From contig JAZDPL010000029.1 of NCBI GenBank assembly GCA_043797665.1, forward strand, positions 1-40,712: a DNA stretch of 40,712 nucleotides, in the 5' to 3' direction. Positions 5,223 to 35,992 of the stretch are shown piece after piece. The notes under the pieces were generated by a model that did no database searches, had not been told where the DNA came from, and saw nothing but the letters and a program-made list of their open reading frames with translations. Position 1 is the stretch's first letter, and each line of letters begins with the position of its first letter. The position numbers were made by a program, and so were the translations under genes. The stretch comes from Candidatus Omnitrophota bacterium. Its GTDB lineage: Bacteria; Ratteibacteria; UBA8468; MWAK01.

Positions 5223-5298
5223 ATTAATACCCCCTTCCCCATCCGAGGGGAATGGAACCCGCGTCTGCTAACGCAGACACCCCTTTACAAAAGGGGAA

Positions 5299-5751
5299 TT
5301 AAAAATCCGTAATTTTAATTCGGCCGGTAATGCTGTAGATGGTAATTTTTTTCTTCTGTGTTCCCTGCTGGTCCTGGACGACGATGGAACCGGAAACCCC
5401 GGCAAGTCCGCCGTCCGGCCGGAAGATTAAAGGGGAAAGGCTTTTGGATATCTCGCTGATTGTGGTACCCGGCGGCAGTCGTTCTTCTTTACCCCAGACT
5501 TTTTTGGTTGCTGCCTCCTGGATGTAGAGAGTATTGCGGTCCTGGTCTATTACTGTTTGAAACTCCTTCCGGTTTTTGAGCGCCATCTCCCGGGCAAGAA
5601 GGAGGGTCTGTTTAATAGTGGTGCAGGCTTGTTTAATCTCTTTTTCTTTCCGGTGCTGCAGAAATTGGGGTATGGTTCCCCAGAGGAGGCAGGCCGTAAG
5701 AAAGAGACAGATTAGGAATTCTATCAGGGTGAATCCGGTTTTATTTTTCAC
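5299..5751 (-). CDS. GspH/FimT-like minor pilin
   Basis: GF-TLIE, LLAREMAL, IFRPDG, ITGRIKI. Confidence 0.85.
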   Translation of the reverse strand: MKNKTGFTLIEFLICLFLTACLLWGTIPQFLQHRKEKEIKQACTTIKQTLLLAREMALKNRKEFQTVIDQDRNTLYIQEAATKKVWGKEERLPPGTTISEISKSLSPLIFRPDGGLAGVSGSIVVQDQQGTQKKKITIYSITGRIKITDF

Positions 5752-6197
5752 TACCAGTTTCCGATATCGTCGGGGGTAGTTTCGGTTCGGTCCGGGCCGC
5801 CGGAGTAAAGGATAAAAGGAGTGGTGGAGTGCAGGGTCTGGGGATACTGGTAGTAATAGGGTTCGTTCCAGGGGTCAACCAGTTCTCTGTCGCAGAAGTC
5901 TTTCTCTTTAAAGCGAAGGTACGGACCCTTCCACCGGGGGTCTTCATTTTTACTCATCAACATTTTGACCACCGTCCCGGCGGTACCGGAAGAGAGGGGA
6001 TAGTCGCCAAAATCGGTTTCATAGAGGGAAAGGGCCAATTCAATCGCGGCAATGGTAGCCTCTGTTTTTGTGGTCAGACCCCGGGCTCGGGCTTTCGCAG
6101 CGGCCGGCAGTACCAGGGCGGCTAAAACAACGCTGATTGCCAGCACTACCAGAATTTCCATTAAAGAGAATCCCTTACGATGCATGGTATGAGGCAT
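5751..6197 (-). CDS. gspG: GspG-like major pseudopilin
   Basis: GF-SLME, ALSLY..D.G.YP, WKGPYL, DPWNEPYYY, YSGGPD....DDIGNW. Confidence 0.85.
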   Translation of the reverse strand: MPHTMHRKGFSLMEILVVLAISVVLAALVLPAAAKARARGLTTKTEATIAAIELALSLYETDFGDYPLSSGTAGTVVKMLMSKNEDPRWKGPYLRFKEKDFCDRELVDPWNEPYYYQYPQTLHSTTPFILYSGGPDRTETTPDDIGNW

Positions 6198-7444: not shown

Positions 7445-7454
7445 ATCTTCTTTT

Positions 7455-7518
7455 TGTCATCCTGAGTGAGCACGAAGGATCTAAGGGATTAGATTCTTCG
7501 CTATCGCTCAGAATGACA
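7455..7518. repeat. Palindromic intergenic repeat (TGTCATCCTGAG...CTCAGAATGACA)
   Basis: Imperfect inverted repeat with inner CGAAGGATCTAA/TTAGATTCTTCG arms. Confidence 0.8.
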
Positions 7519-7534
7519 TACCGCGTGTCATTTT

Positions 7535-9247
7535 TTAGGCGTAGCCGTGAATCTCCGTGCTTACTTCTTCTATGGAGGTGATACCCGCCATAATTTTTTC
7601 CTGGCCGTCAATCGCCATGGTTCTCATTCCTGATTCAACCGCTTTGTGCCGTATTTCCCCGACCGGCACTTTAGCGATTACCATCGACCAGATCTCTTCG
7701 TTAGGGATCAGAACTTCAAATATGGCTATTCTGTCCCTGTATCCCCCCTTGCAGCGCGGACAGCCTGCCGGTTTGAAGAAATTTTTATCCTTTACTTTCT
7801 CCGGGTTTAAACCAATTCCGGTCAGTTCTATTTCCGAGGGTTTGTATTCCTGTTTGCAGAAGGGACAGAGTTTACGTACCAGCCGCTGGCCGATTACACC
7901 GATTATGGTAGATGCGATCAGGAAGGGTTCTATGTTCATATCTATTAACCTGGTAACAGCGCTGGGTGCATCATTGGTGTGAAGGGTAGAGACAACTAAG
8001 TGACCGGTTAAACTCGCCTGGATGGCGATTTCTGCGGTTTCAAAGTCCCTGATTTCTCCGACAAAAATGACGTCCGGGTCCTGACGCAGAATGGAGCGGA
8101 GGCAGGAGGCAAAGGTTAAACCAATCTTTTCCTTAATCGCTACCTGGATGGCGCCGGGCAAAAGGTATTCCACCGGGTCCTCGGTAGTGATTAACTTGAT
8201 ATCCGGCGAATTAACATCTTTGAGCATGGCGTAAAGGGTAGTGGTCTTGCCGCAGCCGGTTGGACCGGTGGCCAGGATGATTCCCTGAGGAGTTTTGGCT
8301 AAATTATTGATAATATTCTGGTCTGAAGAAGCAAGGCCGATATTGCTGAGCCGGAAGTCTATCCTGGTCCGGTCCAGAACCCGGACAGCCATACACTCTC
8401 CGTGCACGGTGGGAATGGTGGACATCCGTAAGTCCACGTCTTTGCCGACCGCCCTGAATTCTAAACGGCCATCCTGGGGGAGCCGTCTTTCCGAGATATC
8501 CATTCCGGACATTATCTTGAACCGGCAGAATAATCCGAAAGCTAATTCTTTTGGAGGATGGACCAAATCATACAGTTTGCCGTCCACCCGGTATCTTACC
8601 CGGAAATCGTTTTCAAACGGTTCCAGATGAAGGTCGCTGGCGTTATCTTTGCATACCTGCAGGATGATTAGATTGTAAAGGCTGGTAACCGGCGGTTGGC
8701 TCGCCAGCTCTTCCATCGTGGTGACATCGGCAGCTTCACCGACGCCCAGAGAGGTGGATTTTGTATCTTCAATCTTGGTCTCGGAAAAATAGTTGATGAG
8801 GTCGCCGATGGACATCGTCTCTTTGCCGTAATACTTTTCGATGGCGGCGTCCAGGGCTACCGGGTCTGCCAGTACCGGTTTAACCTTCCGGCCGATGATA
8901 AAACGGGAATCCTCCTGGACAAACTGGTTTAAGATGTCACTGACCGCGATTACAATCATATCGTTGTCCATTCCCACCGGAAGGACCTGGTAGGTTTTGG
9001 CGATTGCGGCCGGGATAAGACCGATTATCTCCGGTTGGAGTTCAGTTTTGGTGAGGTCAATCGATTCCGTTCCGCTCTGGATGGAGAGGACCCGGCGCAG
9101 TGACTTCTCGTCGGTAAAATGAAGGTCAACCAGGGTTCGGCCCAGAAATTTGCCGGTACGCTGTTGTTCTTCTAACGCTACACGCAACTGGTCGTCGGTA
9201 ACCAGATTCATCTCCCGCAAGAGTTGTCCTAAAAGTTTCCGGGCCAT
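7535..9247 (-). CDS. PilB/GspE-family assembly ATPase (copy 2)
   Basis: MshEN-like N-terminus, RLPQDG, Walker A GPTGCGKTTT, LRQDPD..VGEIRD, TGHLV.STLHTN, CPFC/CPRC. Confidence 0.95.
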   Translation of the reverse strand: MARKLLGQLLREMNLVTDDQLRVALEEQQRTGKFLGRTLVDLHFTDEKSLRRVLSIQSGTESIDLTKTELQPEIIGLIPAAIAKTYQVLPVGMDNDMIVIAVSDILNQFVQEDSRFIIGRKVKPVLADPVALDAAIEKYYGKETMSIGDLINYFSETKIEDTKSTSLGVGEAADVTTMEELASQPPVTSLYNLIILQVCKDNASDLHLEPFENDFRVRYRVDGKLYDLVHPPKELAFGLFCRFKIMSGMDISERRLPQDGRLEFRAVGKDVDLRMSTIPTVHGECMAVRVLDRTRIDFRLSNIGLASSDQNIINNLAKTPQGIILATGPTGCGKTTTLYAMLKDVNSPDIKLITTEDPVEYLLPGAIQVAIKEKIGLTFASCLRSILRQDPDVIFVGEIRDFETAEIAIQASLTGHLVVSTLHTNDAPSAVTRLIDMNIEPFLIASTIIGVIGQRLVRKLCPFCKQEYKPSEIELTGIGLNPEKVKDKNFFKPAGCPRCKGGYRDRIAIFEVLIPNEEIWSMVIAKVPVGEIRHKAVESGMRTMAIDGQEKIMAGITSIEEVSTEIHGYA

Positions 9248-9259
9248 CCTGTTTTCTCC

Positions 9260-10342
9260 CTATGCAGTTGTTTCTGTTTCACCCATCTTCAGCCGTTTTT
9301 CCAATTGTTCCATGTCATAGGAACCGTCCAGCGCAGTCTTTTTATCTATTATACCCCGCTGGTAAGCCTCAAGTAAAGACTGGTCCATCGTCTTCATTCC
9401 GTATTTCATGCCGGTCTGAATTTCCGAGACGATCCGGTAGGTTTTCTTTTCCCGAATCAGGTTGGCGATGGCGGATGTAGCGACCATTATTTCGTAGACC
9501 GCTATCCGGCCTTTTTTGTCTATCCGGGGCAGTAACTGCTGGGAGACGACCGCCAGAATGGAAACGGAGAGCATCACCCGTATCTGTTCCTGTTCTTCGA
9601 TGGAGAATGATTCCACGATTCTATCGACGGTACGGGCTGCTCCGGTGGTATGGAGGGTGGCAAAGACTAAGTGTCCGGTTTCTGCTGCCGTAATAGCCGC
9701 CCGGATAGTTTCGGTGTCCCGCATTTCACCCACTAAGAAGACGTCCGGGTCCTGGCGGAGCCCCCGGCGTAATCCTTCGGAAAAGTCCGGCAGGTCCACG
9801 CCTAATTCCCGCTGGGAGACAAGCGATTTTTTGTGCTGGTGGTAATACTCAATCGGGTCCTCAATCGTGATGATGTGCCGGTCCAGGTTTTCATTGATGA
9901 AGTTGAGCATCGTTGCCATGGTGGTTGTTTTACCGCTTCCGGTGGGACCGGTTATCAGGAAAAGTCCTCTCGGACGGTCCAGGAGTTCAATTATTTTTGT
10001 TTCCAGGCCCAACTGTTCGAAGGTTAGAAATTTATAAGGAATGAGTCGCATTGAAATGGCTATTTCACCCCTCTGTCGATAAGCCGCCACCCGGAACCGC
10101 GCTAAATTTTTGAAGGCAAATCCAAAATCAGTGCTGCCGACCTTAGCCAATTCCTCCTGGTGTTCGTGAGAGGTAATCGCCTTCATATAGCCGACCGTAT
10201 CCTCCGAGGTCAGCGGCACCTTATTCATGTCTACCAGGCTTCCGTGCAGGCGCATTACCGGTGGCCGGTTCGTATGGATGTGTAAGTCGGATGCGTCTTC
10301 TTTAACGATTTTTTCTAATAATTCGTCCAGTGGTACCGCCAT
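9260..10342 (-). CDS. pilT: Type IV pilus retraction ATPase PilT
   Basis: GPTGSGKTTT, LRQDPD..LVGEMRD, AAETGHLVFATLHT, AIANLIRE (AIRNLIRE variant). Confidence 0.95.
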   Translation of the reverse strand: MAVPLDELLEKIVKEDASDLHIHTNRPPVMRLHGSLVDMNKVPLTSEDTVGYMKAITSHEHQEELAKVGSTDFGFAFKNLARFRVAAYRQRGEIAISMRLIPYKFLTFEQLGLETKIIELLDRPRGLFLITGPTGSGKTTTMATMLNFINENLDRHIITIEDPIEYYHQHKKSLVSQRELGVDLPDFSEGLRRGLRQDPDVFLVGEMRDTETIRAAITAAETGHLVFATLHTTGAARTVDRIVESFSIEEQEQIRVMLSVSILAVVSQQLLPRIDKKGRIAVYEIMVATSAIANLIREKKTYRIVSEIQTGMKYGMKTMDQSLLEAYQRGIIDKKTALDGSYDMEQLEKRLKMGETETTA

Positions 10343-10353
10343 ACTTCCTCCCT

Positions 10354-12057
10354 TTATTCTAATGTAGTTGAGGAGATTACTTCGTCATAAGTCGTAAGGC
10401 CCATTTTTACCTTACGTAGCCCGTCCTCACCCATGGTCCGCATTCCGTGTGTTCTGGCGACGGTCCGAATCTTACTGGATGATTGTTTATGGAGAATTAA
10501 CTGGCGTAATTCATCGTCCATGATGAAGATTTCAAAGATACCTTTCCGACCGCGGAATCCGGAGTTATTACATTCCGAGCAGCCGGCCGGCCGGCAGAGC
10601 TTGACCTCTTCCCCGGTTTGAATCCTCAACAATTCTTTTTCGTTTGGGTTTGGTTCGTCTTCAACCTTGCAGGCAGGGCAGAGCATACGGACCAGACGCT
10701 GGGCCATCGCCCCCTGAAGGGAAGAGGAGACCAGAAAAGGTTCTACGCCTAAATCTATCAGACGCGTCGGTGCACTGGTCGCGTCGTTGGTGTGAAGGGT
10801 GGAGAAGACCAGATGACCGGTCAGAGCCGCCCGGAGAGCAACGTCTGCGGTCTCAAAGTCGCGAATCTCTCCGACCAGAATTACGTCGGGTGCCTGACGC
10901 AGGAAACTGCGCAGGACACTGGAAAACGTCAATTTAATGTCCGGTCTGACGTGGGTTTGATTGATTCCTTCAATCTGATATTCCACCGGTTCTTCCGCGG
11001 TCATAATCTTGCGGTCCGTAGTGTTGAGAGCCGAAAGGGAGGTATAGAGGGTCGTGGTTTTTCCGCTGCCGGTGGGTCCGGTCACCAGAACGATTCCTCC
11101 GGAATACCGGAGCAGTTCCTCCCACTTTTTCTGGTCGTCCTGGAGAAATCCCAATTGGTTCATGCTGAGCAGCATGGTGGTTTTATCCAGGATTCTCATT
11201 ACCAGGCTCTCTCCGTAAATCCCGGGCAGGGTACTGACCCGGAGGTCTATCGGCCGGCCGGCCACGTTGAGCATAATCCGGCCGTCCTGAGGAAGGCGTT
11301 TTTCCGCCAGGTCCATACCCGCCATCAATTTAAGTCGGGCAATCAGAGGTCCCTGAAGGGTTTTCGGAGGATTAACCGCTTCGTGGAGGACGCCGTCAAC
11401 CCGGTACCGGACCCGAAGTTTCTCTTCCAGAGGTTCCACATGTATGTCGCTGCATCTTTTCCGGGCGGCATCGGCGATAATGGCACTGGCTAATTTGGCA
11501 ACCGGTGCCAGAAGCGCTTCCTCCCCTTCTCCTATCAGGGAGAGGATTTCGGTCGTTTCTTCGCCCAGCTCACCGGTGTAGCCTTTATCCAATTTTGAGA
11601 GCAGAGGGGTAAGGTCTTCCTTTTCTATGCTGTAAACTGTCTTCAAATAGTTTTCCAGACTCTCGGTGGTGGTGATTTCTAATCTTATTTCCTTCAGCCC
11701 CAGAAGGGTTTGAAGATTGTTGACGACCAGAAAATTTAAAGGTTCGTCCGTGGCAATGGTAACGATATCGTTCTCTAATTTGATGGGCGCGACCCGATGC
11801 TCCCGGGCAAAGTTGGCTGGTATCTTTTCCGTCAGATTAATCGGGGGATTGGAAACAGAAAGGGGCGCAGGGAGAATGCCTAACTGGGGGAGCAGGGAAG
11901 AGAGGAATTCGTCACCCGAGATAAACCCCAATTCCTGGAAAATTCGTTTGATGGAACGGGGTTTAATCAGCTGTTCGTTGACCGCCTGGTCTATCTGGGC
12001 TTTACTCAAAAAACCGATGTCTACTACCGTTTGAATGATTTTCTTAGGGGTAACCAT
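10354..12057 (-). CDS. PilB/GspE-family assembly ATPase (copy 1)
   Basis: SDIHVEP, RLPQDG, GPTGSGKTTTLY, LRQAPD..LVGEIRD, CPAC/CSEC. Confidence 0.95.
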   Translation of the reverse strand: MVTPKKIIQTVVDIGFLSKAQIDQAVNEQLIKPRSIKRIFQELGFISGDEFLSSLLPQLGILPAPLSVSNPPINLTEKIPANFAREHRVAPIKLENDIVTIATDEPLNFLVVNNLQTLLGLKEIRLEITTTESLENYLKTVYSIEKEDLTPLLSKLDKGYTGELGEETTEILSLIGEGEEALLAPVAKLASAIIADAARKRCSDIHVEPLEEKLRVRYRVDGVLHEAVNPPKTLQGPLIARLKLMAGMDLAEKRLPQDGRIMLNVAGRPIDLRVSTLPGIYGESLVMRILDKTTMLLSMNQLGFLQDDQKKWEELLRYSGGIVLVTGPTGSGKTTTLYTSLSALNTTDRKIMTAEEPVEYQIEGINQTHVRPDIKLTFSSVLRSFLRQAPDVILVGEIRDFETADVALRAALTGHLVFSTLHTNDATSAPTRLIDLGVEPFLVSSSLQGAMAQRLVRMLCPACKVEDEPNPNEKELLRIQTGEEVKLCRPAGCSECNNSGFRGRKGIFEIFIMDDELRQLILHKQSSSKIRTVARTHGMRTMGEDGLRKVKMGLTTYDEVISSTTLE

Positions 12058-24598: not shown

Positions 24599-24672
24599 TG
24601 GGAGATCGTCTAACGGTAGGACTTCAGACTCTGGATCTGAGTATGGTGGTTCGAATCCACCTCTCCCAGCCA
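24599..24672 (+). tRNA. tRNA-Gln (anticodon CTG), CCA encoded
   Basis: Acceptor TGGGAGA/TCTCCCA, anticodon arm TCAGA-CTCTGGA-TCTGA, T arm GGTGG-TTCGAAT-CCACC, 3' GCCA. Confidence 0.96.
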
Positions 24673-26262
24673 GGTTGTACGAATTGCCTCGAGAGCCTCA
24701 TTTTGCCCTTGTCCTGCCTGCGTTTCCGGTGGTTCGAACCTTAGAAATTCTTTCTCGAGGGGAGGATATACATTTGCAATAGGTTGTAGCCATTCATTGG
24801 CTTCTATGCTTAGTTTTCCGTCTTTTATTGTCTGGTTCGAACCTAACGCCATCAGTATTTCTCTCTTGGTTTGGGTGTCACCCTCAATAAATGCCTTCCG
24901 GGCATAGGTTGCAAAGTTAAAAGCCCTCTCTGCCAAATCCACCCAGTTGTCTGTCTTTGCCTCGGTTTCTCGTAACCTCTCTTTCAATTGGGTTATCTCA
25001 TTCTGAAGATTGTTGCGCCGTGCGTTATATTCTTCATCAGTAATTAATTCCTTGCACCGCATGTCAATTAGATTATCCAGGTGTTTCTGGGCATCAATCA
25101 GAACCTTGTGATGTGTTTCATAAGCCATATTCCTGCCTTCACTCTCTTTATCGTCTGCCGCACGTAAAGCTTCCAGTGCCCAATTCCTGAACTCCGGAAG
25201 GATAGTATATTTTTTTAATTCGTTTTCTATCTGCAATTCCAGAGCCTCTGCTCTTATTACTTTTGTCTGAGAACACCGAAAATCCTTTTTCCTCCGGGTA
25301 CAAAAATAGTAGGTATAATGTCTTGTTTCGCCTGTGCTTTTTATCAATTTGGTTTTGGTGTCAGCTGTAAAAAGACAGCCGCATTCTTCACAACGTATTA
25401 ATCCTGTAAATGCAAAGTTATGTTTTTGAAATCTCGGTTTTCCTTTTCTGCCAAGAAGTAGCTGGACCCGGTCATATTCTTCCAAGGTGGTCATTGCTTC
25501 ATGACTACCTTTATGCTGAACACCCTGGGAATCAGTGATAATTCCTGCATAGAACAGATTGGTGAATATATTGTAAATACTGCTTCTCGGCAGTTTGTTA
25601 CCTCCCATTTTCCTGAATTTCCTTGTTCTGAAACCCCATTTTTCATTGGCTATCTCAAGAATCTTGGGTGGAGTATAACTACCGGCAAGCATTAAATCCC
25701 ACATTTTCCTGAGAAGGGGAAAACGTTCAGGGTCTTTGACAATTGTCTTTTCTATCTTGTCGTTTAAATATCCCAGGGGAGCCAGATTAGGCAGCCAGCC
25801 TTTTTGAACTCTTTTTTCCAGCCCTCGTTTTACATTTCGGCTTAGATCCCGTATATACTGGTTGGCCATGCCACTTTCAATTGCATACAACAGGACATTG
25901 TCTTCGGGTAAATATTCCCGGGTTATTGTCTGGATTGACTTGATTACACCTTTTTGCAACATCCAGCTGACCCTGGCGCTGTCAACAGGATTTCTTGCCA
26001 GACGGTTTATTTCCCAGCACAGAATACCCTCGACTTCGCCATCTTCTATCTTTTGAATTAAGGCATTAAATACAGGTCTTTTTCCTGGCTCTTTGGCAGA
26101 TTTGGCTTCTGTGAAAATTTCTTTAATCAGGAGATTCTTATCCTTGGCCAGTTGTTTCATCCGGTCAACTTGGGCCTCAATCGACTGAACCTGGCGGTCT
26201 TCGGATTCCGAGGACTTTCTAGCATAGAGGAAATACCTTATTCTTTCTGGAATCTTTTCCAT
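24610..26262 (-). CDS. Large serine recombinase (resolvase, recombinase, Zn-ribbon and coiled-coil domains)
   Basis: YARKSS catalytic motif, NRLARN, APLGY, N.FYAG, CEEC...YYFC...C. Start MEKI at 26262 behind GGAGG. Confidence 0.95.
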   Translation of the reverse strand: MEKIPERIRYFLYARKSSESEDRQVQSIEAQVDRMKQLAKDKNLLIKEIFTEAKSAKEPGKRPVFNALIQKIEDGEVEGILCWEINRLARNPVDSARVSWMLQKGVIKSIQTITREYLPEDNVLLYAIESGMANQYIRDLSRNVKRGLEKRVQKGWLPNLAPLGYLNDKIEKTIVKDPERFPLLRKMWDLMLAGSYTPPKILEIANEKWGFRTRKFRKMGGNKLPRSSIYNIFTNLFYAGIITDSQGVQHKGSHEAMTTLEEYDRVQLLLGRKGKPRFQKHNFAFTGLIRCEECGCLFTADTKTKLIKSTGETRHYTYYFCTRRKKDFRCSQTKVIRAEALELQIENELKKYTILPEFRNWALEALRAADDKESEGRNMAYETHHKVLIDAQKHLDNLIDMRCKELITDEEYNARRNNLQNEITQLKERLRETEAKTDNWVDLAERAFNFATYARKAFIEGDTQTKREILMALGSNQTIKDGKLSIEANEWLQPIANVYPPLEKEFLRFEPPETQAGQGQNEALEAIRTTWLGEVDSNHHTQIQSLKSYR

Positions 26263-26274
26263 AATAGCCTCCAA

Positions 26275-26346
26275 CAAAAAGGACGGCTCTGGTTAACCCA
26301 GCTCTACCCCTTACAGAAGGAGTAACATTCTGGCAGAACCGCCCTT
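26275..26346 (-). terminator. Stem-loop plus U-tract in the recombinase 5' leader (putative attenuator)
   Basis: Minus strand AAGGGCGGTTCTG...CAGAGCCGTCCTT followed by a T-run immediately before the RBS. Confidence 0.55.
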
Positions 26347-26396: not shown

Positions 26397-26425
26397 ATTA
26401 TACCAGGTTTTGTAAATGGTGTAAA
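26397..26425 (-). promoter_or_regulatory. Sigma70 promoter for the recombinase
   Basis: TTTACA-N17-TATAAT with extended -10 TG. Confidence 0.65.
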
Positions 26426-26435: not shown

Positions 26436-26627
26436 TTAAATATCAACGTCATCTTTTTTTTCTTTCTGGAAACTAACAGAATCGTTTTCTGTTTTAGGTT
26501 TGGCAAGTATTTTAATAAGTCGGATAAGTGAGACCCCTTTTTCATAAGCTTCTTCCCGACTGATATCCCTGCCGAACCTTTGCTTGTAAAGGTTCTGGAA
26601 CTCCTTGACCTGCGTTTCGGATAACAT
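26436..26627 (-). CDS. Small helical protein preceding the serine recombinase
   Basis: GAGGAG RBS; MLS...KEFQ.LYK..FG..ISREEA pattern, which I recall upstream of such recombinases. Confidence 0.75.
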   Translation of the reverse strand: MLSETQVKEFQNLYKQRFGRDISREEAYEKGVSLIRLIKILAKPKTENDSVSFQKEKKDDVDI

Positions 26628-26668: not shown

Positions 26669-28069
26669 CTACTTTGCCAACATTTTTGTTAATTCTGGTT
26701 GAAAATCACAGAGTGCCAAAATACTGTTTTCACCCAAGCCACAACACGAACATTCTGGATTTTTTGTAGGAGCGAATTTGCGAATGTCGTTTTTTATCCC
26801 GTCATAATAAATCCACTTTTCTATCGGTTTTATTCCTGCAATCCAACACGCGATTTCCCAACTCGCAATTCCTGCTGCAATTGTATTCAATGGGATGACT
26901 TGCGGAGTAGGAGAAAGTGAAGTGTGGGCAATATATCCGGCCTTTTTTCTCATCTCTTTAAGATGCTCATCCATTAATTCTTGTTGTATCTCGTCCTGGT
27001 TGAGACCTCCACAACACTCAAAGCATGGATAACCTTCTTCTCTGGGTAGAAAAGTTTGTATCTGACAGCCTGCTGCCGCTATTTTTTCACCTTTTTCATC
27101 CATATAAATTCCTGTTGCTACATTTACCAATGGTTTTGCATACTGCGCACATATTCTATTTACTGAAACTCTGGTCCTGTCGTTATCAACCGCTAGCAGA
27201 ACTATATCTGCTCGTTTGACAGCATCAGAGATTTTTCTATCTTCATCTCTGAACTCTTTGTAGTGGGTTTTAACCCTTGCTTTTCTGTTGAATCTTTTTA
27301 TTGCCTGCGCAATAAATCCAACTTTCCTGTTCCCAATAGCTTTTTCTGGGTCATCTACAAAATAAAGCCTGTTGCAATTGCTCTTTTCAATTACATCATT
27401 GTCAACAATCTCAATTATAGAGAAGCCTATTCTGATAAGCTGATAAAGCAGGGCACTTCCCAGACCGCCGGCTCCTATCACCAGGACTTTTGCTCTTGTA
27501 ATTTTTTCCATGCCTTTCTCCGAGAAAGCAAGTGTGTTTTTTTCAAAAACCCCGCTTAAATTGGGTTCTACCTTTTTTTCCTTCCCAACCGAATAAATAC
27601 CATTCTTGCCAACTACTTCCATTTCTTTAAAATAATGAAAACTGCCGAAACCAAACGGAAATCTCGGTTTGTAGAGTCTTGCTGCAAAATCTCTCGAACT
27701 GGTGAAGACAATCTGGACTATTTGGGGTTTTTCAATAAATTTTCTGGTATTTTTGTAGAGTTTTTCTGCACCCTTATCATCAATACCTGAAAACCATGCC
27801 CTGTCAGTAAATTTGTGCCAATGCGCTTGTACTACAAGAGGTGTCCTTTCTTTGATTAAAAGATTATACAGTTTACAATCAAAGTTAATGTCTGTTTTTA
27901 CATAAGCCTCATTTCTTAACATTTCCTTCTGTTCCGGTTTCAACACAAACTTTATAATTCCCTTTCGATCGGAAAAATAACCCAGGCAGTAACATATTTC
28001 CTCTTTGCCATCTGGAATGGTTTGCTGTATCCTCTGAAGTTGCGAACCAGAAAGAGATAATTTAAACAT
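26669..28069 (-). CDS. JAB metallopeptidase - ThiF/E1 adenylating enzyme fusion
   Basis: N-terminal E...HWH-x8-SGID (JAMM). C-terminal GAGGLG, DND..EKSNCNR, VDN, CFEC and CSCC Zn pairs. Start MFKL at 28069 behind AAAGGAG. Confidence 0.88.
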   Translation of the reverse strand: MFKLSLSGSQLQRIQQTIPDGKEEICYCLGYFSDRKGIIKFVLKPEQKEMLRNEAYVKTDINFDCKLYNLLIKERTPLVVQAHWHKFTDRAWFSGIDDKGAEKLYKNTRKFIEKPQIVQIVFTSSRDFAARLYKPRFPFGFGSFHYFKEMEVVGKNGIYSVGKEKKVEPNLSGVFEKNTLAFSEKGMEKITRAKVLVIGAGGLGSALLYQLIRIGFSIIEIVDNDVIEKSNCNRLYFVDDPEKAIGNRKVGFIAQAIKRFNRKARVKTHYKEFRDEDRKISDAVKRADIVLLAVDNDRTRVSVNRICAQYAKPLVNVATGIYMDEKGEKIAAAGCQIQTFLPREEGYPCFECCGGLNQDEIQQELMDEHLKEMRKKAGYIAHTSLSPTPQVIPLNTIAAGIASWEIACWIAGIKPIEKWIYYDGIKNDIRKFAPTKNPECSCCGLGENSILALCDFQPELTKMLAK

Positions 28070-28070
28070 C

Positions 28071-28490
28071 TCAGACTCCTTTCTTGTATAAAAAGGGATT
28101 TGTAAAATAGACCCGTAATGTATTAAGAAAATCAAGCAGACTTACAAAATGTCTTCCGGGATGAAAACAAATCCACATATAATTTTCTGTATTGCTGAAG
28201 AGATTACTGTGTTTCCCTATGGATGCGTCATGCCAGTTTTCCAATTGTTTAAAACTTCCCTTAATTATTATTCTCAGATTACTTGGCGTATAGACCTCTG
28301 TTACGCTTGTAGTATCATATTGCTCCGGAATTATTATTACTATCGGGCACATCCTCAGATTGTATTGTGGTGGTAAGGAATAGTTTCGTATTCTTACCCA
28401 TGTTCCATCACTCGGGAAATCAACATTATCTGCTCCATATCTTGCCTGGAGTATTTTCATCTCTAAGGCAAGCCGTTTTAGATTTCTCAT
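28071..28490 (-). CDS. Prokaryotic E2-like (UBC-fold) protein
   Basis: WV.I.NY.LP..YN......I.IP..Y pattern of Prok-E2 (family E-like), W-I-C-F-H motif, SLLDFL helix; lies between the Ubl and E1 genes. Confidence 0.75.
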   Translation of the reverse strand: MRNLKRLALEMKILQARYGADNVDFPSDGTWVRIRNYSLPPQYNLRMCPIVIIIPEQYDTTSVTEVYTPSNLRIIIKGSFKQLENWHDASIGKHSNLFSNTENYMWICFHPGRHFVSLLDFLNTLRVYFTNPFLYKKGV

Positions 28491-28503
28491 GGTTCCCTTT
28501 CTG

Positions 28504-28529
28504 GAGAAGGGGGCGTGTGCCCCCTTCTC
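28504..28529. promoter_or_regulatory. Perfect 11-bp GC-rich hairpin between the Ubl and E2 genes
   Basis: GAGAAGGGGGC-GTGT-GCCCCCTTCTC. Confidence 0.7.
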
Positions 28530-28531
28530 GA

Positions 28532-28741
28532 TCAACCTTCATCCAGGTGGAAAAAACTGTCGAGTTCGGTTCCGTCTGCAATTTGGTATCTTTGATCAGG
28601 AGAGACAGGAACCATCTGTCCTTCTGGCGTTCTAAGACAGAGGTGTGTATCTTTAGGTGGGTTTACCATCGCCCTGAGATCCATACCATCTAATACCTCA
28701 GGAACCACGAACTCGCGTCCTTGGTACCTTATCCGCGCCAC
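28532..28741 (-). CDS. Ubiquitin-like (beta-grasp) protein with free C-terminal Gly
   Basis: About 70 aa, strand-strand-helix-strand pattern, ends ...FHLDEG-stop, first of Ubl-E2-E1. GTG start at 28741 behind GAGGAGGTG (alternative 28750). Confidence 0.72.
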   Translation of the reverse strand: MARIRYQGREFVVPEVLDGMDLRAMVNPPKDTHLCLRTPEGQMVPVSPDQRYQIADGTELDSFFHLDEG

Positions 28742-28754
28742 GTTTATCACCTCC

Positions 28755-29003
28755 TCAGATTCTTCCCTTCGGATTTAAACCATAATCTTCAAGGGTTTCT
28801 TTGTTTGTTCGGTCACTATGTCCTCTTGTCTGTTGCCCTGGTTCAAGATGTACTCTTGGAGTTCTTCTTTCCCTCTCTGTGTCTCTGCTTTCATCATCTA
28901 TGCTGTTTCTTTTCTGGCTTTCAGTTATGTGGGAATTCCCCCTTAATATTTTTGGAACCATGAAAATACTGAAGATTAAGCCGAACAGAGTGAAAGGGTC
29001 CAT
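28755..29003 (-). CDS. Small single-pass membrane protein with charged, probably disordered tail
   Basis: AGGAGG RBS; N-terminal FTLFGLIFSIFMVPKIL. Confidence 0.75.
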   Translation of the reverse strand: MDPFTLFGLIFSIFMVPKILRGNSHITESQKRNSIDDESRDTERERRTPRVHLEPGQQTRGHSDRTNKETLEDYGLNPKGRI

Positions 29004-29044
29004 TATGGCCTCCTAATGTTTTTTACCCCCTTTATTTAGAGCTT

Positions 29045-29302
29045 TCATCTAATTTTTTTAAAGCCAACAGACATAACAAATTTTTTGCCCAGAGGTCTCT
29101 TTGCCGAGAACAGCATCGTGGGCCTCATAATTTTCGTACAGGACAGAGACTTATACTTCTTAAATTTGAGGGAACTCTGTTTTACATAGGGCATTGGTTT
29201 CCTCTGTCCTAACGATGCCCAAAATGGACTATCTTTTATCTGAGGCAACGATTTAACTGGCAAAGGTTTCTGCATCAAGAAAATGTCATTCCATGAAAGC
29301 AT
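29045..29302 (-). CDS. Highly basic 85-aa hypothetical protein
   Basis: AAGGAGGTG RBS before ATG at 29302; 15 Lys, 2 Asp, no Glu. Confidence 0.6.
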   Translation of the reverse strand: MLSWNDIFLMQKPLPVKSLPQIKDSPFWASLGQRKPMPYVKQSSLKFKKYKSLSCTKIMRPTMLFSAKRPLGKKFVMSVGFKKIR

Positions 29303-29317
29303 TTCGATCACCTCCTT

Positions 29318-29401
29318 TTAACCGTACTTTAGTTCGTGTTTCAATATCTTCGGAACCATGAAAATGCTGAGAAGTAAGCTGAACAGTTCAAAAAAGCCCA
29401 T
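29318..29401 (-). CDS. 27-aa membrane micropeptide MGFFELFSLLLSIFMVPKILKHELKYG (not in ORF track)
   Basis: Manual translation. Overlaps the ATPase stop, has an AGGGG RBS-like sequence, and shares SIFMVPKIL with 28755-29003. Confidence 0.65.
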   Translation of the reverse strand: MGFFELFSLLLSIFMVPKILKHELKYG

Positions 29402-31415
29402 GGTCGCCCCTGATTAATTCTTCAATATTTCCTGCTTTCAGTAATTCGTGGACAAGACAGATGTGTATTTTTTCACTTTTTAGGTTATTCAATTTTTCCA
29501 TCACTGTTTTATCTTTGCAGGCAATTATCACTCCAATGCAGCCAGCAGCGAGGTCCTTGTCGACGTTAATTATTTCGTGGTCAGGGCACATGGCAATCGA
29601 AATGGCAATAATTCCTTTGTCTGTTTCAATGCCAAGGTCAAGAAATTTTCCATTAAGATTTTTTTCTATCTCGATTTTGTAACCCTTTCCCTTGAGGTGT
29701 TCTGAAATTTTGACTTGCCAGTATTCATGTTGAAAACCAGTTCCTCTACCAATATGCGGTTTGGGTTGCATACCTATTGCTGCATAGCCTTTTTCAGTCA
29801 GCACCGGGAACTTGGTCAAGCCACCTCTGCCGCCAAGATTAATCTCTTCTTCAATACACAGGCCTTTGCTTACAAGCGATTTGAAAATTGCTGTGCCATT
29901 TCCTGCTGACAGTCCCACATTCTTATAGTGTTGGGTTTTAAAATCATACGGACGAAAGTAGATATCCACGAGGATGTCTTTTTCTTTGGATCTTGCTCCG
30001 GTAGTGTCCTTTTTGACTTCTTCTTTTTTCCCCGGCAGAGGGATAGGTATGAAATTGGCATGCTGTTCCTTACGTTCTTGCGGTATGCCAAGTTCAGATG
30101 CGAAATTCTGCATATGCCTGGTCAATTCGTTAGCACTTACATTTTTTTCAATGGGAAAATCAGGAAAAACAACAAGAAAAGGATTTGGGTAGCGTGCAAA
30201 TCTCCCTATTGCCTGGCCTGGCTGCAACTGCCAGACAGTTTCTTTCTGTTCCGGCGTTAATCCTAGAGACTGCGAGAAGGATCGTATATTTTCTCCTTCC
30301 GAGAGGCTCATCATGATTCTCGTGTAGCAGTTTTTTACGCTATTGCAAAGAGATTCAGGTAGTTGGCAAGAAGATATGATTCCAATGCGAAATTCTCGGG
30401 CTTCCCTTGCCAATTGCGAAATTGTCAGGTCACCTCGCTGTCTTTCTATCTCGCGATTGAAGATTTCATTGGCTTCGTCGATGATGACAAGAATTGGAAA
30501 CGGTTCATTTCTGTTTAGAATTCCGGTTTGAAAAACATGGGCAAGCACCAGGGGGGTGAAATAGCTTCTTGCTCCTGTTCCCAAGCCATCCAATTCCAAA
30601 ACAACATTGTATTTTTTAAGCAATTTTTCAATGTTATAACCATGACTGCAATTCAGAGTGTTATATGCCCTTATTACCAGGGGGTTAATTCTGTTCAAAG
30701 ATGTTTCCTTAAATCTTGCGTCTCTTTTTATCAAGGGTTGCCTGTCTTCCTCTATTTTCTTTTTTAATTGAATCAAAGTTGGTGGAAATGGCTTTGTTTC
30801 TTCATAAAGATCATAAGTAAGTTTTGCTATGTAATTATCCGTACCTTGATAAAAGCCATACGCCTCAGCTGTTATGTTGGAAACAATCGGAATCCAGTCT
30901 TCAGGTGGCCCGGGAAAATCATATGGATTCCACCTCAGTAAATAGGGGGCGTCTTCTTTACAGCACCTAAACACCATAGTGTCTGGCAAAATCCTGATGA
31001 GGTGCCGGTAATCCTGTTTTAAATCAAAAATCAGACAATGTATGCCGAGTTTGTTGACTGCTGTTATTAACCTGTAGCAAAAAGTGGTCTTTCCTGCTCC
31101 CGGTCTTCCTGCTATTACACTTCCTTGATTTAATTCGTCTGGGTATAAGCCAAAAATGGCTGAAGTTTCGTTACATATGCCCAACCGAATTGGACCATCA
31201 ATTTCATTGGTTGGATAAGGTCTAAACGGATCTGGTTTTAGCGCATCTCTTACAAGGTAGGGGTTTATAAATTTAAATAACCGACTGTATTTTTCTGGTG
31301 TAGGGTCTGCGGTATAAGAACGCAATAGAGCCGCCACCGCTGGGATATTCTGGAGACCCAGTTTCTTTACAATGACAGCAGGTTCCAAAGGACTCGGTAT
31401 TTTTACCTGTTCCAT
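29388..31415 (-). CDS. HerA/FtsK/VirB4-superfamily (DUF87-like) ATPase with C-terminal winged-helix and restriction-endonuclease-like domains
   Basis: IAGRPGAGKT, IFDLKQDY, WNP, IIDEA, REAREFRIG...Q.P; tail SLVSKGL...GRGG...LTEKG and HEYW...IEK...LDL...AISI. Confidence 0.8.
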   Translation of the reverse strand: MEQVKIPSPLEPAVIVKKLGLQNIPAVAALLRSYTADPTPEKYSRLFKFINPYLVRDALKPDPFRPYPTNEIDGPIRLGICNETSAIFGLYPDELNQGSVIAGRPGAGKTTFCYRLITAVNKLGIHCLIFDLKQDYRHLIRILPDTMVFRCCKEDAPYLLRWNPYDFPGPPEDWIPIVSNITAEAYGFYQGTDNYIAKLTYDLYEETKPFPPTLIQLKKKIEEDRQPLIKRDARFKETSLNRINPLVIRAYNTLNCSHGYNIEKLLKKYNVVLELDGLGTGARSYFTPLVLAHVFQTGILNRNEPFPILVIIDEANEIFNREIERQRGDLTISQLAREAREFRIGIISSCQLPESLCNSVKNCYTRIMMSLSEGENIRSFSQSLGLTPEQKETVWQLQPGQAIGRFARYPNPFLVVFPDFPIEKNVSANELTRHMQNFASELGIPQERKEQHANFIPIPLPGKKEEVKKDTTGARSKEKDILVDIYFRPYDFKTQHYKNVGLSAGNGTAIFKSLVSKGLCIEEEINLGGRGGLTKFPVLTEKGYAAIGMQPKPHIGRGTGFQHEYWQVKISEHLKGKGYKIEIEKNLNGKFLDLGIETDKGIIAISIAMCPDHEIINVDKDLAAGCIGVIIACKDKTVMEKLNNLKSEKIHICLVHELLKAGNIEELIRGDHGLF

Positions 31416-31903
31416 GGCCTTATCCTTTCAGGAGGATTTTTCATAATAAACACGGGTTTCTCGTCGCGATGAACTGTGATATATTTTTTCTGGAGAAACG
31501 GCAAAAAAGTCACCGTTTTCCAGCAGTGCAGGCAGAAGAACTCAGTCCCTTTTTGTCTAACGTGTTGCCGGCAATGGAATAGACCGCATCTCTTGCAAGA
31601 AAAGTAATTCAAACCAGAAAAAATGTGTTTGCACTTTCGATTTTGACATCTTACTGCAACGACCGTCCCGTCTTGATTGATAATCAATCCGTCATGAAAT
31701 TCCTTGAATTTCGTAACCCCCTCGGTTTTAATCGAGCCCTCTGGTGTGAGAACAGAAGATTTTTCCTCGAAAGAAAGGATTGATTCATCTGGAGGGATGA
31801 TTTTGGTCTCCTTCCGTTCACTTTCCAGGTTTGAACCTCTCGCATTCAGAATTCTAAGGATGTCGTCCATCGGATCATTAGGTTGTGCAGGGTGTTGTGC
31901 CAT
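31403..31903 (-). CDS. Binuclear Zn-finger protein (AN1/B-box-like)
   Basis: C-x4-C-x11-C-x2-C-x4-C-x2-H-x9-C-x2-C; GGAGG RBS. Confidence 0.75.
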   Translation of the reverse strand: MAQHPAQPNDPMDDILRILNARGSNLESERKETKIIPPDESILSFEEKSSVLTPEGSIKTEGVTKFKEFHDGLIINQDGTVVAVRCQNRKCKHIFSGLNYFSCKRCGLFHCRQHVRQKGTEFFCLHCWKTVTFLPFLQKKYITVHRDEKPVFIMKNPPERIRPWNR

Positions 31904-31919
31904 TTTCTACCTCCGTTGG

Positions 31920-32240
31920 CTATACTGTCTGCATTTTTGAAAGCAGAGGTTTTTGTTCATTCACTTTCTTTTTTTCACCATACTTCAAAATAGCCTCAAC
32001 GAGCAAAAAGCAATACCAACAAAGGAAAAAGACGATTTTTTCTTTCTCATCAAGTGTGTAAGTTAAAGTAATAAAATCTATCGGTGGCAAGTGCTCCATT
32101 TTATTAAAGGAGTTGAGAGTTATAATTTTCTCTCCCTGTTTCCTGTGGCAGAGATAGCAAGAAGGTCCCGCTTTTTCATTTGCAAAATCTTCTTCTGGCG
32201 TCCCAGTCATATAGATTTTTTTGACTGTTTTCTTTTCCAT
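31920..32240 (-). CDS. C4 Zn-finger protein (ClpX-like treble clef), paralog 2
   Basis: CYLC...LCWYC followed by a helix; AAGGAG RBS before MEKK. Confidence 0.7.
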   Translation of the reverse strand: MEKKTVKKIYMTGTPEEDFANEKAGPSCYLCHRKQGEKIITLNSFNKMEHLPPIDFITLTYTLDEKEKIVFFLCWYCFLLVEAILKYGEKKKVNEQKPLLSKMQTV

Positions 32241-32271
32241 CTTCAACTCCTTTTTCAGTTTTTTTGGCTTC

Positions 32272-32592
32272 TTAGTTTGTTCTACCGACGGCAATATGCT
32301 CAGGGATAATCTCGTTGTCTTTTCCCACAACCATTTGGAGAATACCTTTTATTAGTAACCCGCACTCCTGGCAGATTATAAAGTTAAAACCATATTCTCC
32401 ATTTTGGACACTAAATCTGCTAAGCAATATGGGCGCCTTTCCGTGATAGCCTTTGGGAGTAAGAAAAAAACTTTCCTCTGAGCTGGTCCTTTTGCACAAA
32501 AAACAACACGGCTCGAAATCATCGTCCTGTACATCCTTTTGTGCAACTTTACCGGTCAGCAAAACTTCTTTTTCCTTATTCTCAGTTTTCAT
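32272..32592 (-). CDS. C4 Zn-finger protein (ClpX-like treble clef), paralog 1
   Basis: CFLC...ICQEC followed by a helix; AGGGAGGTG RBS before MKTE. Confidence 0.7.
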   Translation of the reverse strand: MKTENKEKEVLLTGKVAQKDVQDDDFEPCCFLCKRTSSEESFFLTPKGYHGKAPILLSRFSVQNGEYGFNFIICQECGLLIKGILQMVVGKDNEIIPEHIAVGRTN

Positions 32593-34360: not shown

Positions 34361-35992
34361 TCACTGTTCCCTTCGTGTTTTGTTTGTGTTATTTGCAACC
34401 GAGGAAAAAATGAGGAATAGTACCATTGAAAAAATTATTCCTGATATAACTGAAGATATCGAGTGAGAAATTTGCGTCCTCAGATACATTCTGCCCTCCC
34501 AGTCTACATTTCTTCCCAGATTGTTGGTTATGAATACCCATCGGTTTATCAAGGGTACTATGTTGCTCATTATCCCCACAGTCACGCTGTATATGGTCAG
34601 AAGCTTGATGCCCTTTTTGTCATATTTGAACTCGTTTTTTGTGTATCTCAAAGGAAAGCACGCAAGAAAAACAAGCAAAAAGTACATTGTGAATGAAAAT
34701 GCAACAACAGAAAGGTCCTGTTGAGCAACACTCTTAAGGAGATTACCTGTCAGTCCCATAAGTATTCCTGCTGTTCCTGCGGTGAATACACCGACAAATC
34801 CAAATATTTCAAAATTTAGAAGACCTGTTTGTTGTTCTTCGATATCGGAACTGGAAGAGTCAAGAATTTTTAAGCGGCGTGAAAGTGCCGGGTGATAGGG
34901 AAGCCTACCCCGCGCACTGAAAATATTGAACGGCCGAAAAACTTCTAGAATGTGATGTCTTTTTACGTCAGTGAAACTCGATTCAGATGCAAACGAAAAA
35001 GAGGAATTTGAGCTTTTTTCTGCCAAGATAGACATTTTCAATATGGCATTTTTCAAAATATGGGCAGGGATATACCTGACAGCCACTAAATCTGCAAAAA
35101 CTTCGCATCGTTGCAAGCAAAGCGAAGCATACCGCCACCCCATACCGACAGCCACAAGAGAAGCAAATGATGTTATCAACAGCGTAAGGGGATATGGTAG
35201 AAAGTTCAATCGTTTCCCGACAGGTAGAAGCACATATCTTCCTTCCTGAAGAAAAAGGGTGAGTGCAATGAAGAGTGTAATCAAGAACCATCTATTCAAA
35301 ATCACTCTTGTAGCAAACGGAATGAAGTCATCTTTATTTGATACATGGCCGAATTCATGACATATGACAGCTTTCAGCTCATCAATTGAGATGACTCGTT
35401 TTGAAATGGCTTCTGGCATTCTGGCACCAAAAACAAGCAGAATAGTGCTCTTCATTCTTAAGACTGTACAATTGAAAGAAGAAAGCTGCGTGTTTCTTTT
35501 GTGAAAGAATCTAATTTCAACTTTTTCTTTCAGGGGCATGGCGGTTTTCACGCTGGTGACAGCATTTTCTATTTCTGCAATTCCACTCTTGAAATTTTCA
35601 TCTACATTAGATATAGAGGAAAGCGCAATATTGAGAAAACGGTTTTTGGTTGTGACATACAGGATAAGAGCAAGGAAAGGGAGAAATCCAAGAACATGAA
35701 TGCTTGCAATGTACAGAAAAAAATGCAAAAATCCAGCTTTTGTCTGTGTGTAGAGTTTGAAAGCAGAGGTGAATAACAAGGAGTAGAAACCTATTAATCC
35801 TTGTTCATTTCGAAGAACGCTGGTGGCATATGTCGCGAAAGGAACGAGGAGAAAGAATGAAAGAAGAATTTGAAAACCCAGCACATTTTCTGAAGTTCTG
35901 CTACCTTTTGAACTCCGAAGATACGCAGTGACGAAGAAGCTAATGATTAGAATGGGCGACGTATATATGATGAAAAATAGTAATGCAGCCAA
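34361..35992 (-). CDS. Multi-pass membrane zinc metallopeptidase, M48 (HtpX/Ste24)/M56-like
   Basis: ELKAVICHEFGH, E.FAD, HP....RL, many TM segments; TTG start behind AAGGAG. Confidence 0.85.
   Translation of the reverse strand: MAALLFFIIYTSPILIISFFVTAYLRSSKGSRTSENVLGFQILLSFFLLVPFATYATSVLRNEQGLIGFYSLLFTSAFKLYTQTKAGFLHFFLYIASIHVLGFLPFLALILYVTTKNRFLNIALSSISNVDENFKSGIAEIENAVTSVKTAMPLKEKVEIRFFHKRNTQLSSFNCTVLRMKSTILLVFGARMPEAISKRVISIDELKAVICHEFGHVSNKDDFIPFATRVILNRWFLITLFIALTLFLQEGRYVLLPVGKRLNFLPYPLTLLITSFASLVAVGMGWRYASLCLQRCEVFADLVAVRYIPAHILKNAILKMSILAEKSSNSSFSFASESSFTDVKRHHILEVFRPFNIFSARGRLPYHPALSRRLKILDSSSSDIEEQQTGLLNFEIFGFVGVFTAGTAGILMGLTGNLLKSVAQQDLSVVAFSFTMYFLLVFLACFPLRYTKNEFKYDKKGIKLLTIYSVTVGIMSNIVPLINRWVFITNNLGRNVDWEGRMYLRTQISHSISSVISGIIFSMVLFLIFSSVANNTNKTRREQ

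Follow-up and report, generated by a model that had tools for sequence, protein, structure and literature searches.

Here we describe a ten-gene array in which a ubiquitin-like (Ubl) conjugation module lies directly beside a DNA-motor ATPase of the HerA class. The array is carried by a 40,712-nt contig of a Candidatus Omnitrophota bacterium (NCBI GenBank assembly GCA_043797665.1, contig JAZDPL010000029.1; GTDB lineage Bacteria; Ratteibacteria; UBA8468; MWAK01), which was analysed over its entire length and is referred to below as the window; the genome measures 2.7 Mb and is 86% complete. Judged by their sequences, the three conjugation genes, which encode a Ubl, an E2 and a fusion of JAB and E1 domains (JAB-E1), are a variant of the Type I Bub pathway (6E.1), their closest relative, and we have found no printed description of such a Bub-like variant paired with a DNA-motor ATPase. 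We read the array as a coupled Ubl and ATPase-nuclease conflict system and favour this over a chance juxtaposition of its two halves, with a confidence that stands near even. Coupling is favoured because no junction between neighbours among the ten genes exceeds 41 nt and because genes of the Ubl type abut the same family of ATPase in all four Thermoplasmatota loci described below (4/4). A role in conflict is supported by the likeness of the ATPase fold to HerA proteins of defence systems, by a SIR2_2 gene in one of the archaeal loci (L087), and by the residence of Bub operons in mobile elements at tRNA genes and in defence loci (Ye et al. 2024, bioRxiv 10.1101/2024.11.21.623953).

The ten genes run in one direction on the minus strand, from 32592 to 26669, and every frame is open (Table). 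From ZnF1 to JAB-E1 the successive junctions are +31, +16, -13, -14, +15, +41, +13, +41 and +1 nt, a spacing that fits a single transcription unit and agrees with an initial annotation, made from the sequence alone, which had listed ten co-oriented genes with gaps of about 40 bp or less. Starts were chosen by an upstream Shine-Dalgarno-like (SD) motif, which precedes the start codon in nine of the ten genes, and this choice shortened several open reading frames (ORFs) to the sizes given in that annotation. Neither promoter-like sites (21 in the region, 18.9 in shuffled sequences) nor terminator-like sites (12 and 9.0, respectively) were in excess. The single strong promoter-like site (11/12; 26425..26397) lies past the array and the 63-aa ORF that follows it, ahead of the recombinase.

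Table. Coordinates of the ten-gene array and its surroundings in the window, followed by the archaeal cassette loci (ZnF, zinc finger; SD, Shine-Dalgarno-like motif; wHTH, winged helix-turn-helix)
Feature	Position	Strand	Description
ZnF1	32592-32272	-	106 aa; CxxC...x40...CxxC, hydrophobic stretch after second CxxC; SD-backed ATG at 32592
ZnF2	32240-31920	-	106 aa; ZnF1 paralogue
ZnF3	31903-31403	-	166 aa; Cys/His-rich, eight ligands; conserved ATPase partner
ATPase	31415-29388	-	675 aa; predicted HerA/VirB4-class P-loop, linker, winged helix, PD-(D/E)xK-like alpha/beta domain
pep27	29401-29318	-	27-aa hydrophobic ORF, Gly-terminated; putative gene
Lys-rich protein	29302-29045	-	85 aa from SD-backed ATG
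TM82	29003-28755	-	82 aa; 20-aa hydrophobic N-terminus, then charged tail
Ubl	28741-28532	-	69 aa; predicted beta-grasp, Bub 'multi-ubiquitin' type, last residue Gly
E2	28490-28071	-	139 aa; Pfam Prok-E2_E, BubB relative
JAB-E1	28069-26669	-	466 aa; JAB-E1 fusion, BubCD relative
63-aa ORF between array and recombinase	26436..26627	-	no family match
Large serine recombinase (island integrase)	24610-26277	-	555 aa; Resolvase 4.4e-19, Zn_ribbon_recom, PHROG integrase 6.7e-77
tRNA-Gln(CTG)	24599-24672	+	island insertion site; GC drops from 0.54 to about 0.40 here
Thermoplasmatota cassette loci	L087 (G885:C20) 4447-11064; L056 (G042:C121) 5188-10049; also L088, L091		HerA-class ATPase with wHTH and nuclease-like tail

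JAB-E1 contains one ThiF domain (residues 201-464, 7.7e-41, Pfam), and a search of 5.8 billion clusters returned about a dozen close relatives of 40-57% identity. An 11-member alignment of this family shows full or nearly full conservation of the JAMM residues E23, H83, H85, S94 and D97, of the glycines that bind the nucleotide, of a CxxC...CxxC pair and of Tyr379, and the crossover loop holds no conserved Cys. The best solved relative of the family profile is Citrobacter BubCD (8.9e-23), with which it is colinear over both domains (profile 24-403, chain 27-392). Tyr379 aligns with the Tyr of the BubCD motif 'RGYITG' and, assuming an offset of two residues between chain and protein numbering, would be the counterpart of Y370, the residue of BubCD that forms the oxyester (Ye et al. 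2024).

The E2 matches Pfam Prok-E2_E at 2.2e-5 and 24.7 bits, against a cut-off of 25 that a shorter start just reaches (25.0 bits), and its best solved match is Citrobacter BubB (6e-9 with a mixed profile, 1.1e-3 with a profile of the Cys-bearing clade). Its relatives numbered 50 in an exhaustive HMMER search of 1.84 billion representatives and 3 in a word-indexed search. The window protein carries the motif W-I-C-F-H, and Cys occupies that position in 33 of the 37 aligned clade members (W-x-C-x-H), 24 of which are matched by Prok-E2_E; some members, of 200-300 aa, hold the E2 C-terminally, and one has a Multi_ubiq domain. Three Omnitrophota relatives instead have F-S-(F/W)-H. The catalytic residues of BubB are S333 and H335 (Ye et al. 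2024), and by its position in the motif the window Cys would correspond to S333. The prevalence of Cys in the clade, together with its likeness to BubB, places the window E2 in a Cys-bearing sister group of the Bub E2.

The predicted structure of the Ubl is a beta-grasp (predicted local distance difference test, pLDDT, 86.2) that ends in Gly, and this residue aligns with the terminal Gly of its relatives. Its top Foldseek matches are Citrobacter and E. coli multi-ubiquitin proteins (TMq 0.70-0.77), with BubA at 0.65; the corresponding E-values are weak (7e-3 and above), as a length of 69 residues would lead one to expect, and a profile built from four sequences matches 9d59 at 1.4e-8. Thus the identities first proposed for the three proteins hold, through the beta-grasp model, the Prok-E2_E and BubB matches, and the combination of ThiF domain, JAMM motif and BubCD likeness. 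The same annotation had not recognised the accessory genes from known systems and had suggested that the pathway may be undescribed; the conjugation module itself can be placed as a variant of Type I Bub on the strength of the BubCD (8.9e-23) and BubB (6e-9) matches. It was right in seeing no CD-NTase (cGAS/DncV-like nucleotidyltransferase): neither Pfam nor PADLOC matched one among the 14 island proteins.

With Type I Bub (BubAB, BubCD and BubE), as presented in the part of Ye et al. 2024 that was consulted, the window shares several features: its JAB and E1 domains are fused and run colinear with BubCD, the crossover loop carries a Tyr and lacks a conserved Cys, the E2 is akin to BubB/Prok-E2_E, the Ubl is a multi-ubiquitin-type beta-grasp ending in Gly, and the genes sit on a mobile element at a tRNA gene. 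It differs in that its Ubl and E2 are encoded apart, 41 nt from each other, whereas those of Bub are fused (BubAB), in the C-x-H motif of its E2 whereas BubB has S-x-H, no Cys and an oxyester chemistry, in a CxxC...CxxC zinc site added to the E1, and in the absence of BubE, a serine protease of the DUF6527 family. No Pfam match to BubE/DUF6527 was obtained in the window at E-values up to 0.1, and the best match in a six-frame search of the whole genome, at 0.39, lay on another contig. We considered ZnF1, ZnF2 and ZnF3 as divergent forms of BubE and rejected them (hhalign probability against a DUF6527 protein, 0.2%). The window further adds the HerA-class ATPase, the zinc-finger proteins and the small hydrophobic proteins, none of which is mentioned in the same part of that preprint, where the words 'ATPase' and 'HerA' occur 0 times (Ye, Gong, Chambers and Corbett, bioRxiv 10.1101/2024.11.21.623953).

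Other Ubl systems stand further away. Operon type 6e, as described in the sections consulted of Iyer, Burroughs and Aravind 2006 (PMC1779556), likewise has a JAB and E1 fusion, a Zn-finger protein, high mobility and, placed after the Ubl and before the fusion, an E2-like gene that in some cases stands alone. In contrast to the window, its E2-like proteins lack Cys, no ATPase is described in those sections, and its Zn finger (C-x3-C...H-x2-C, later DUF6527) is unrelated to ZnF1-3. Bil (BilA-D), on the account of Ye et al. 2024 as far as consulted, resembles the window in that a mobile or defence locus holds genes for a Ubl, a JAB, an E1 and an E2 whose catalytic residue is Cys, and none for an E3. 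In that system BilD carries tandem adenylation domains and a Cys domain and BilC has a gene of its own, whereas the window E1 is a single domain fused to JAB with Tyr instead of Cys; PADLOC gave no match to BilD. Type II CBASS (an antiphage signalling system based on cyclic oligonucleotides) comprises a CD-NTase, the E2-E1 fusion Cap2 and Cap3, unlike the window with no CD-NTase, and the PADLOC E1-E2 matches span the adenylation domain only. Since the 2023 release of PADLOC contains no Bub models, little can be concluded from the lack of a match there for the Ubl and E2.

The other half of the array includes the ATPase, which, as modelled, is a HerA/VirB4-class protein with a winged helix and a nuclease-like tail. 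In the model (pLDDT 83.9), a helical N-domain leads into a P-loop core (76-442), which a disordered linker (448-474) connects to a winged helix (476-546) and then an alpha/beta domain (561-658); with the Foldseek results the model bears out the ATPase-wHTH-nuclease-like layout proposed at the outset. Walker A GKT and Walker B DE are invariant among 18 sequences, as are H563, E584 and D593 in the alpha/beta domain. The highest-ranking Foldseek matches are HerA (4d2i, 4.3e-15), SIR2-HerA and DUF4297-HerA complexes (8wld, 9.8e-13), the DndH C-domain and VirB4; against the core, the SIR2-HerA and DUF4297-HerA complexes (8wld, 8xau, 8zir and others) score between 1e-12 and 1e-10. At the level of families, we obtained matches to PADLOC mad8 (2.2e-17) and NCBIfam CedD (1.7e-9) and weak Pfam matches to TrwB_AAD_bind and the TraG P-loop. 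As leads only, the C-terminal 200 residues resemble the tails of DUF87, TrwB_AAD_bind, TraG and VirD4 clusters in the ESM Atlas (TM 0.51-0.83), as well as small proteins partly annotated Replic_Relax. The family is rare, with 36 matches at E 1e-3 or better. Two independent contigs encoding close relatives (L011 and L017) both stop at residues 424-438, just ahead of the linker, which suggests either a hypervariable stretch or a point at which assemblies repeatedly break.

The ATPase core and a setting in defence or mobile islands are common to the window and to SIR2-HerA and DUF4297-HerA; in contrast, the window lacks a SIR2 or DUF4297 partner (nothing resembling SIR2 was found in its six-frame ORFs with a custom SIR2_2 hidden Markov model or phmmer), fuses a wHTH and a nuclease-like domain to the ATPase, and has Ubl enzymes alongside. 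A similar arrangement is that of YukD and the FtsK-like EccC in ESX/type VII systems, in which, according to the sections consulted of PMC1779556, a beta-grasp Ubl gene stands beside an ATPase of the FtsK/HerA superfamily and membrane proteins. That is a protein secretion system without E1, E2 or JAB; the likeness is one of arrangement, and we claim no homology to the window.

The remaining genes of the array encode zinc-finger and small proteins. ZnF1 and ZnF2, each with a CxxC...CxxC pattern, are paralogous (25% identity over 81 aa, E 2e-6) and yielded no detected relatives; ZnF1 has no match in Pfam, NCBIfam or PHROGs. The Cys/His ligands of ZnF3 number eight, and C86, C91, C103, C106 and C111 are invariant across four homologues. 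Pfam returned nothing for the 'AN1-like' finger first seen in it, and an ESM Atlas lead to Prok-RING_2 (0.88) is under the threshold of the tool. Homologues of ZnF3 lie immediately upstream of the ATPase in three other loci (G029, L018 and L011) in which no Ubl genes are visible, so that a dedicated E3 role for ZnF3 is unlikely, and the suggestion that the zinc fingers serve as E3 is weakened to that extent. The Lys/Arg-rich protein (K+R = 19 and D+E = 3 in its 88-aa ORF) has no family match in Pfam, PADLOC, NCBIfam or PHROGs. A 66-nt direct repeat of 74% identity (28945-29010 and 29343-29408) underlies the shared N-termini of TM82 and pep27; the latter duplicates part of that N-terminus (67% over 21 aa) and has a weak ribosome-binding site, and its coding status is for these reasons uncertain. 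The two had been described as membrane micropeptides: both ORFs are present and hydrophobic, but the N-terminus of TM82 falls under the hydropathy threshold used and pep27 may not be a gene. The duplication in pep27, the lack of detected relatives of ZnF1 and ZnF2, and the division of the G029 ATPase into two ORFs could be taken as signs of a decaying remnant, inactive and with a tight spacing devoid of meaning. We regard this as very improbable against ten open frames, nine of them with SD motifs, and catalytic motifs that are all intact in the JAB, E1, E2 and ATPase.

Support for the view that the two halves of the array belong together comes from archaea. A re-scan of the loci compared identified a Methanomassiliicoccales genome in which an E1-like gene lies about 1 kb from a P-loop gene, within a cassette that encodes, in one direction, a 224-aa protein, a 230-aa JAB-like protein (hhalign E 2.6e-4 over the E...HxH region), a 263-aa ThiF protein, two small transmembrane (TM) proteins and an 804-aa ATPase. 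The alignment of this ATPase with the window family spans 523 columns and takes in both the winged helix and the nuclease-like domain (hhalign probability 99.94%, E 4.5e-37). Three more full-length members were found among 401 Thermoplasmatota genomes and two orders, and in 4/4 loci of this branch (G042:C121, G1284:C42, G885:C20 and G885:C2) JAB, E1 and one or two small TM genes directly precede the ATPase, joined by a Ub(-E2) fusion gene in the three loci whose upstream end can be read. In G885 the cassette has genes for a ubiquitin-family protein, for a Ub-UQ_con fusion (5e-22, canonical HPN...C), for a Prok-JAB protein and for a minimal ThiF protein, and in L087 (G885:C20) a SIR2_2 gene stands directly upstream of the Ub genes. 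Gene order differs from that of the window, and the E2 of G885 is of a different family (canonical UQ_con), so that the ATPase is found with two kinds of Ubl cassette; in both settings small membrane proteins stand between the cassette and the ATPase. The Thermoplasmatota cassettes neighbour SIR2, HEPN-like and methylase genes, not transfer genes; a Replic_Relax match of 0.0049 occurs in L088. We found no description of this cassette in literature searches. These loci lend real support to the original suggestion that the ATPase and membrane peptides go with the Ubl module, and they supply the recurrence that it had proposed to look for in gene neighbourhoods; the pairing is not universal, since 16 other ATPase loci or genomes and 7 other Prok-E2_E/JAB-E1 loci lack the partner.

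Small TM proteins beside the archaeal ATPases (L056 7565-7750, L087 8490-8717 and L088 7616-7834) end in ...GGT(D/E), and pep27 ends in Gly. Such ends could hint at C-termini that can be adenylated; those of the archaeal proteins may be conserved because they overlap the ATPase reading frame.

Several observations weigh against coupling. Ubl enzymes were found in 5 of the 21 ATPase loci or genomes examined, the window included, and the other 16 often have integrases or type IV secretion system (T4SS) genes nearby. In six annotated loci of ATPase relatives with 26-31% identity (G029, L012, L013, L021, L022 and L023), none had a ThiF, an E2 or a conjugation-type JAB (0/6), tyrosine or serine recombinases were nearby, and in L021 and L022 the ATPase is accompanied by a T4SS pilin and a VirB4-like ATPase. 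The ATPase was present in 14 of 401 Halobacteriota genomes; in the 10 checked for co-occurrence, a set that leaves out three further ATPase-positive genomes, E1-like matches lay only at least 100 kb off or on other contigs. Conversely, the ATPase was absent from all seven other Prok-E2_E/JAB-E1 loci (0/7), which belong to three Omnitrophota genomes (G164, G268 and G326), one Halorubrum (L045) and three plasmids (H8, H20 and H26) and include one canonical BubAB-BubCD-DUF6527 operon. JAB-E1 occurs in 1 of 65 genomes of the window's phylum, namely its own, and among 401 Omnitrophota genomes the fusion was found in 1 and Prok-E2_E in 3, with the ATPase in none of these three (0/3). In G029 the slot between ATPase and integrase is filled by DUF2997, an IetA-like AAA protein and DUF1257. 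Close matches of the ATPase and of JAB-E1 shared no contig that we recognised, in a comparison made without a positive control. The closest ATPase relatives (35-75% identity) are encoded on short contigs ending inside the gene, so that the genes downstream are unseen; ATPase-profile scans of genome, metagenome and viral contigs returned only short contigs or distant relatives, and a scan of viral contigs with the JAB-E1 profile gave no match. Finally, the two G885 paralogues share 70% identity and those of G042 and G1284 are 78% alike, so that the archaeal examples, from three genomes, amount to about two independent lineages.

These distributions are what would be expected if ZnF3 and the ATPase were the backbone of an element concerned with DNA transfer, partition or replication, and Ubl, E2 and JAB-E1 an independent cargo inserted in the slot between ATPase and recombinase. 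The 16 ATPase loci or genomes without Ubl genes and often near integrases, T4SS pilin or VirB4-like genes, the seven Bub-like cassettes without this ATPase (7/7), the other genes that occupy the G029 slot, the likeness of the ATPase tail to those of type IV coupling protein (T4CP) clusters and to Replic_Relax proteins, and the CedD likeness all speak for such a juxtaposition. We nevertheless consider it unlikely, if the most serious of the alternatives: the four Thermoplasmatota loci (4/4), in which JAB, E1 and small TM genes abut the ATPase, are hard to square with chance insertion, no gap of more than 41 nt separates the halves in the window, where terminator-like signal does not rise above shuffles, and relaxase, pilin and VirB4 were not found in the part of the island that is visible before it runs off the contig. 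The ATPase-wHTH-nuclease protein appears to be a portable module, at home in integrative elements and defence islands, whose partners vary and in two branches are a Ubl cascade.

Further features were observed in the loci compared. In G029:C69, from a genome of the same class (L009 17509-19982 and L010 168-4256), after a ZnF3 homologue and an ATPase split into 577-aa and 112-aa ORFs come DUF2997, an IetA-like AAA protein, DUF1257 and a tyrosine integrase, and at L009 6114-10557 another HerA paralogue, its nuclease tail CoiA-like, adjoins a SIR2_2 gene. In G326:C1 (L048/L050), an HTH_3 gene and a gene for a 235-aa HEAGH protein stand ahead of an operon of Ubl, S-x-H type E2, JAB and E1 that lacks DUF6527; the two look like the CapH/CapP regulator pair reported for Bub operons. 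In the Halorubrum locus L045 (G043:C1; 2181-11632), 3-5 kb separate a Ubl-like gene, a Prok-E2_E gene and a JAB-E1 fusion from genes for a T4SS pilin and a VirB4-like AAA_10 ATPase, and this Bub-like module apparently lies inside a conjugative archaeal element.

The array itself lies on an integrated island. The left 24 kb of the window consists of bacterial housekeeping genes (FtsK with a 4TM domain, RbfA, ArgS, the Leu pathway, and type II secretion/type IV pilus genes) with a guanine-plus-cytosine (GC) content of about 0.50-0.54, and from about 24.5 kb to the contig end GC is 0.32-0.42; this fall, together with the tRNA-Gln and the recombinase at the junction, indicates that the array belongs to an island. 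Its far end is outside the contig (the island runs off at 40712), leaving about 16 kb visible, in which Pfam, PHROGs and other family searches found no VirB4, pilin or relaxase. The last 21 codons of the recombinase run antisense across 63 of the 74 bases of the tRNA-Gln, an overlap by which the recombinase C-terminus may differ between the integrated and the excised island. Elsewhere the island holds a gene for a 543-aa protein (34361-35992) that has about nine hydrophobic segments and matches Peptidase_M48 weakly (5.6e-6), together with four more ORFs of 210-612 aa without a family match.

An island setting also invites an explanation in terms of transfer control, according to which the ATPase would be a TraB- or T4CP-like exporter of double-stranded DNA and the Ubl module would permit or restrict transfer by tagging either this exporter or the small membrane proteins. 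The weak TrwB_AAD_bind and TraG P-loop matches, the T4SS neighbours in L021 and L022 and the distance of only 3-5 kb between the Halorubrum module and T4SS pilin and VirB4-like ATPase genes are in keeping with this, and the wHTH tail could serve to recognise a site in the element. We hold it to be improbable, given that mating-pore genes were not seen in the window, that the Thermoplasmatota cassettes keep company with SIR2, HEPN-like and methylase genes instead, and that the ATPase fold is closer to HerA than to VirD4 or TrwB.

If the array is a coupled conflict system, homology would suggest the following course for the conjugation reactions. The E1 half would adenylate the terminal Gly of the Ubl and load it on Tyr379, as BubCD does with Y370; the Ubl would then be handed to the Cys of the C-x-H motif of the E2 as a thioester, where Bub uses a serine oxyester, and attached to lysines of its targets, and the JAB half could trim or remove it. 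From genomic context, the ATPase may form a ring on DNA that is kept near the membrane by the small proteins, conjugation of the Ubl might switch the ATPase-nuclease on or off or mark its substrates, and the whole array might serve in conflict with invading DNA or phage, or in competition between mobile elements. More tentatively, at somewhat short of even confidence, we propose that the window and the Thermoplasmatota loci represent an undescribed class of bacterial and archaeal conflict systems, in which a Ubl cascade is wired to a membrane-associated HerA-class translocase with its own nuclease-like domain and tagging licenses or directs the motor-nuclease. In such a class the ATPase would be combined with at least two Ubl cassettes (a Bub-like one with a Cys-type E2 and a eukaryote-like Ub-UBC one), and the window module would stand chemically between the oxyester and thioester pathways, using Tyr on the E1 and then Cys on the E2.

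Prokaryotic Ubl systems have previously been linked to vWA-MoxR/FtsH systems, and not to HerA, in the part consulted of Kaur et al. 2020, and full-text literature searches, which did not cover the supplementary operon tables of preprints, returned no account of a Ubl cassette joined to an ATPase of the HerA class. The finding has implications for Bub pathways, for which no phage protection and no targets were found, according to the part of Ye et al. 2024 that was consulted. An ATPase-nuclease beside a Bub variant suggests an effector arm for Bub, and the ATPase, the Lys-rich protein and the small membrane proteins are candidate substrates. Furthermore, the combination of a Cys-type E2 with a Tyr-type E1 allows a direct test of the interconversion of oxyester and thioester, and the occurrence of an archaeal Ub-UBC fusion beside the same family of ATPase bears on the uses to which ubiquitin machinery may have been put before eukaryotes.

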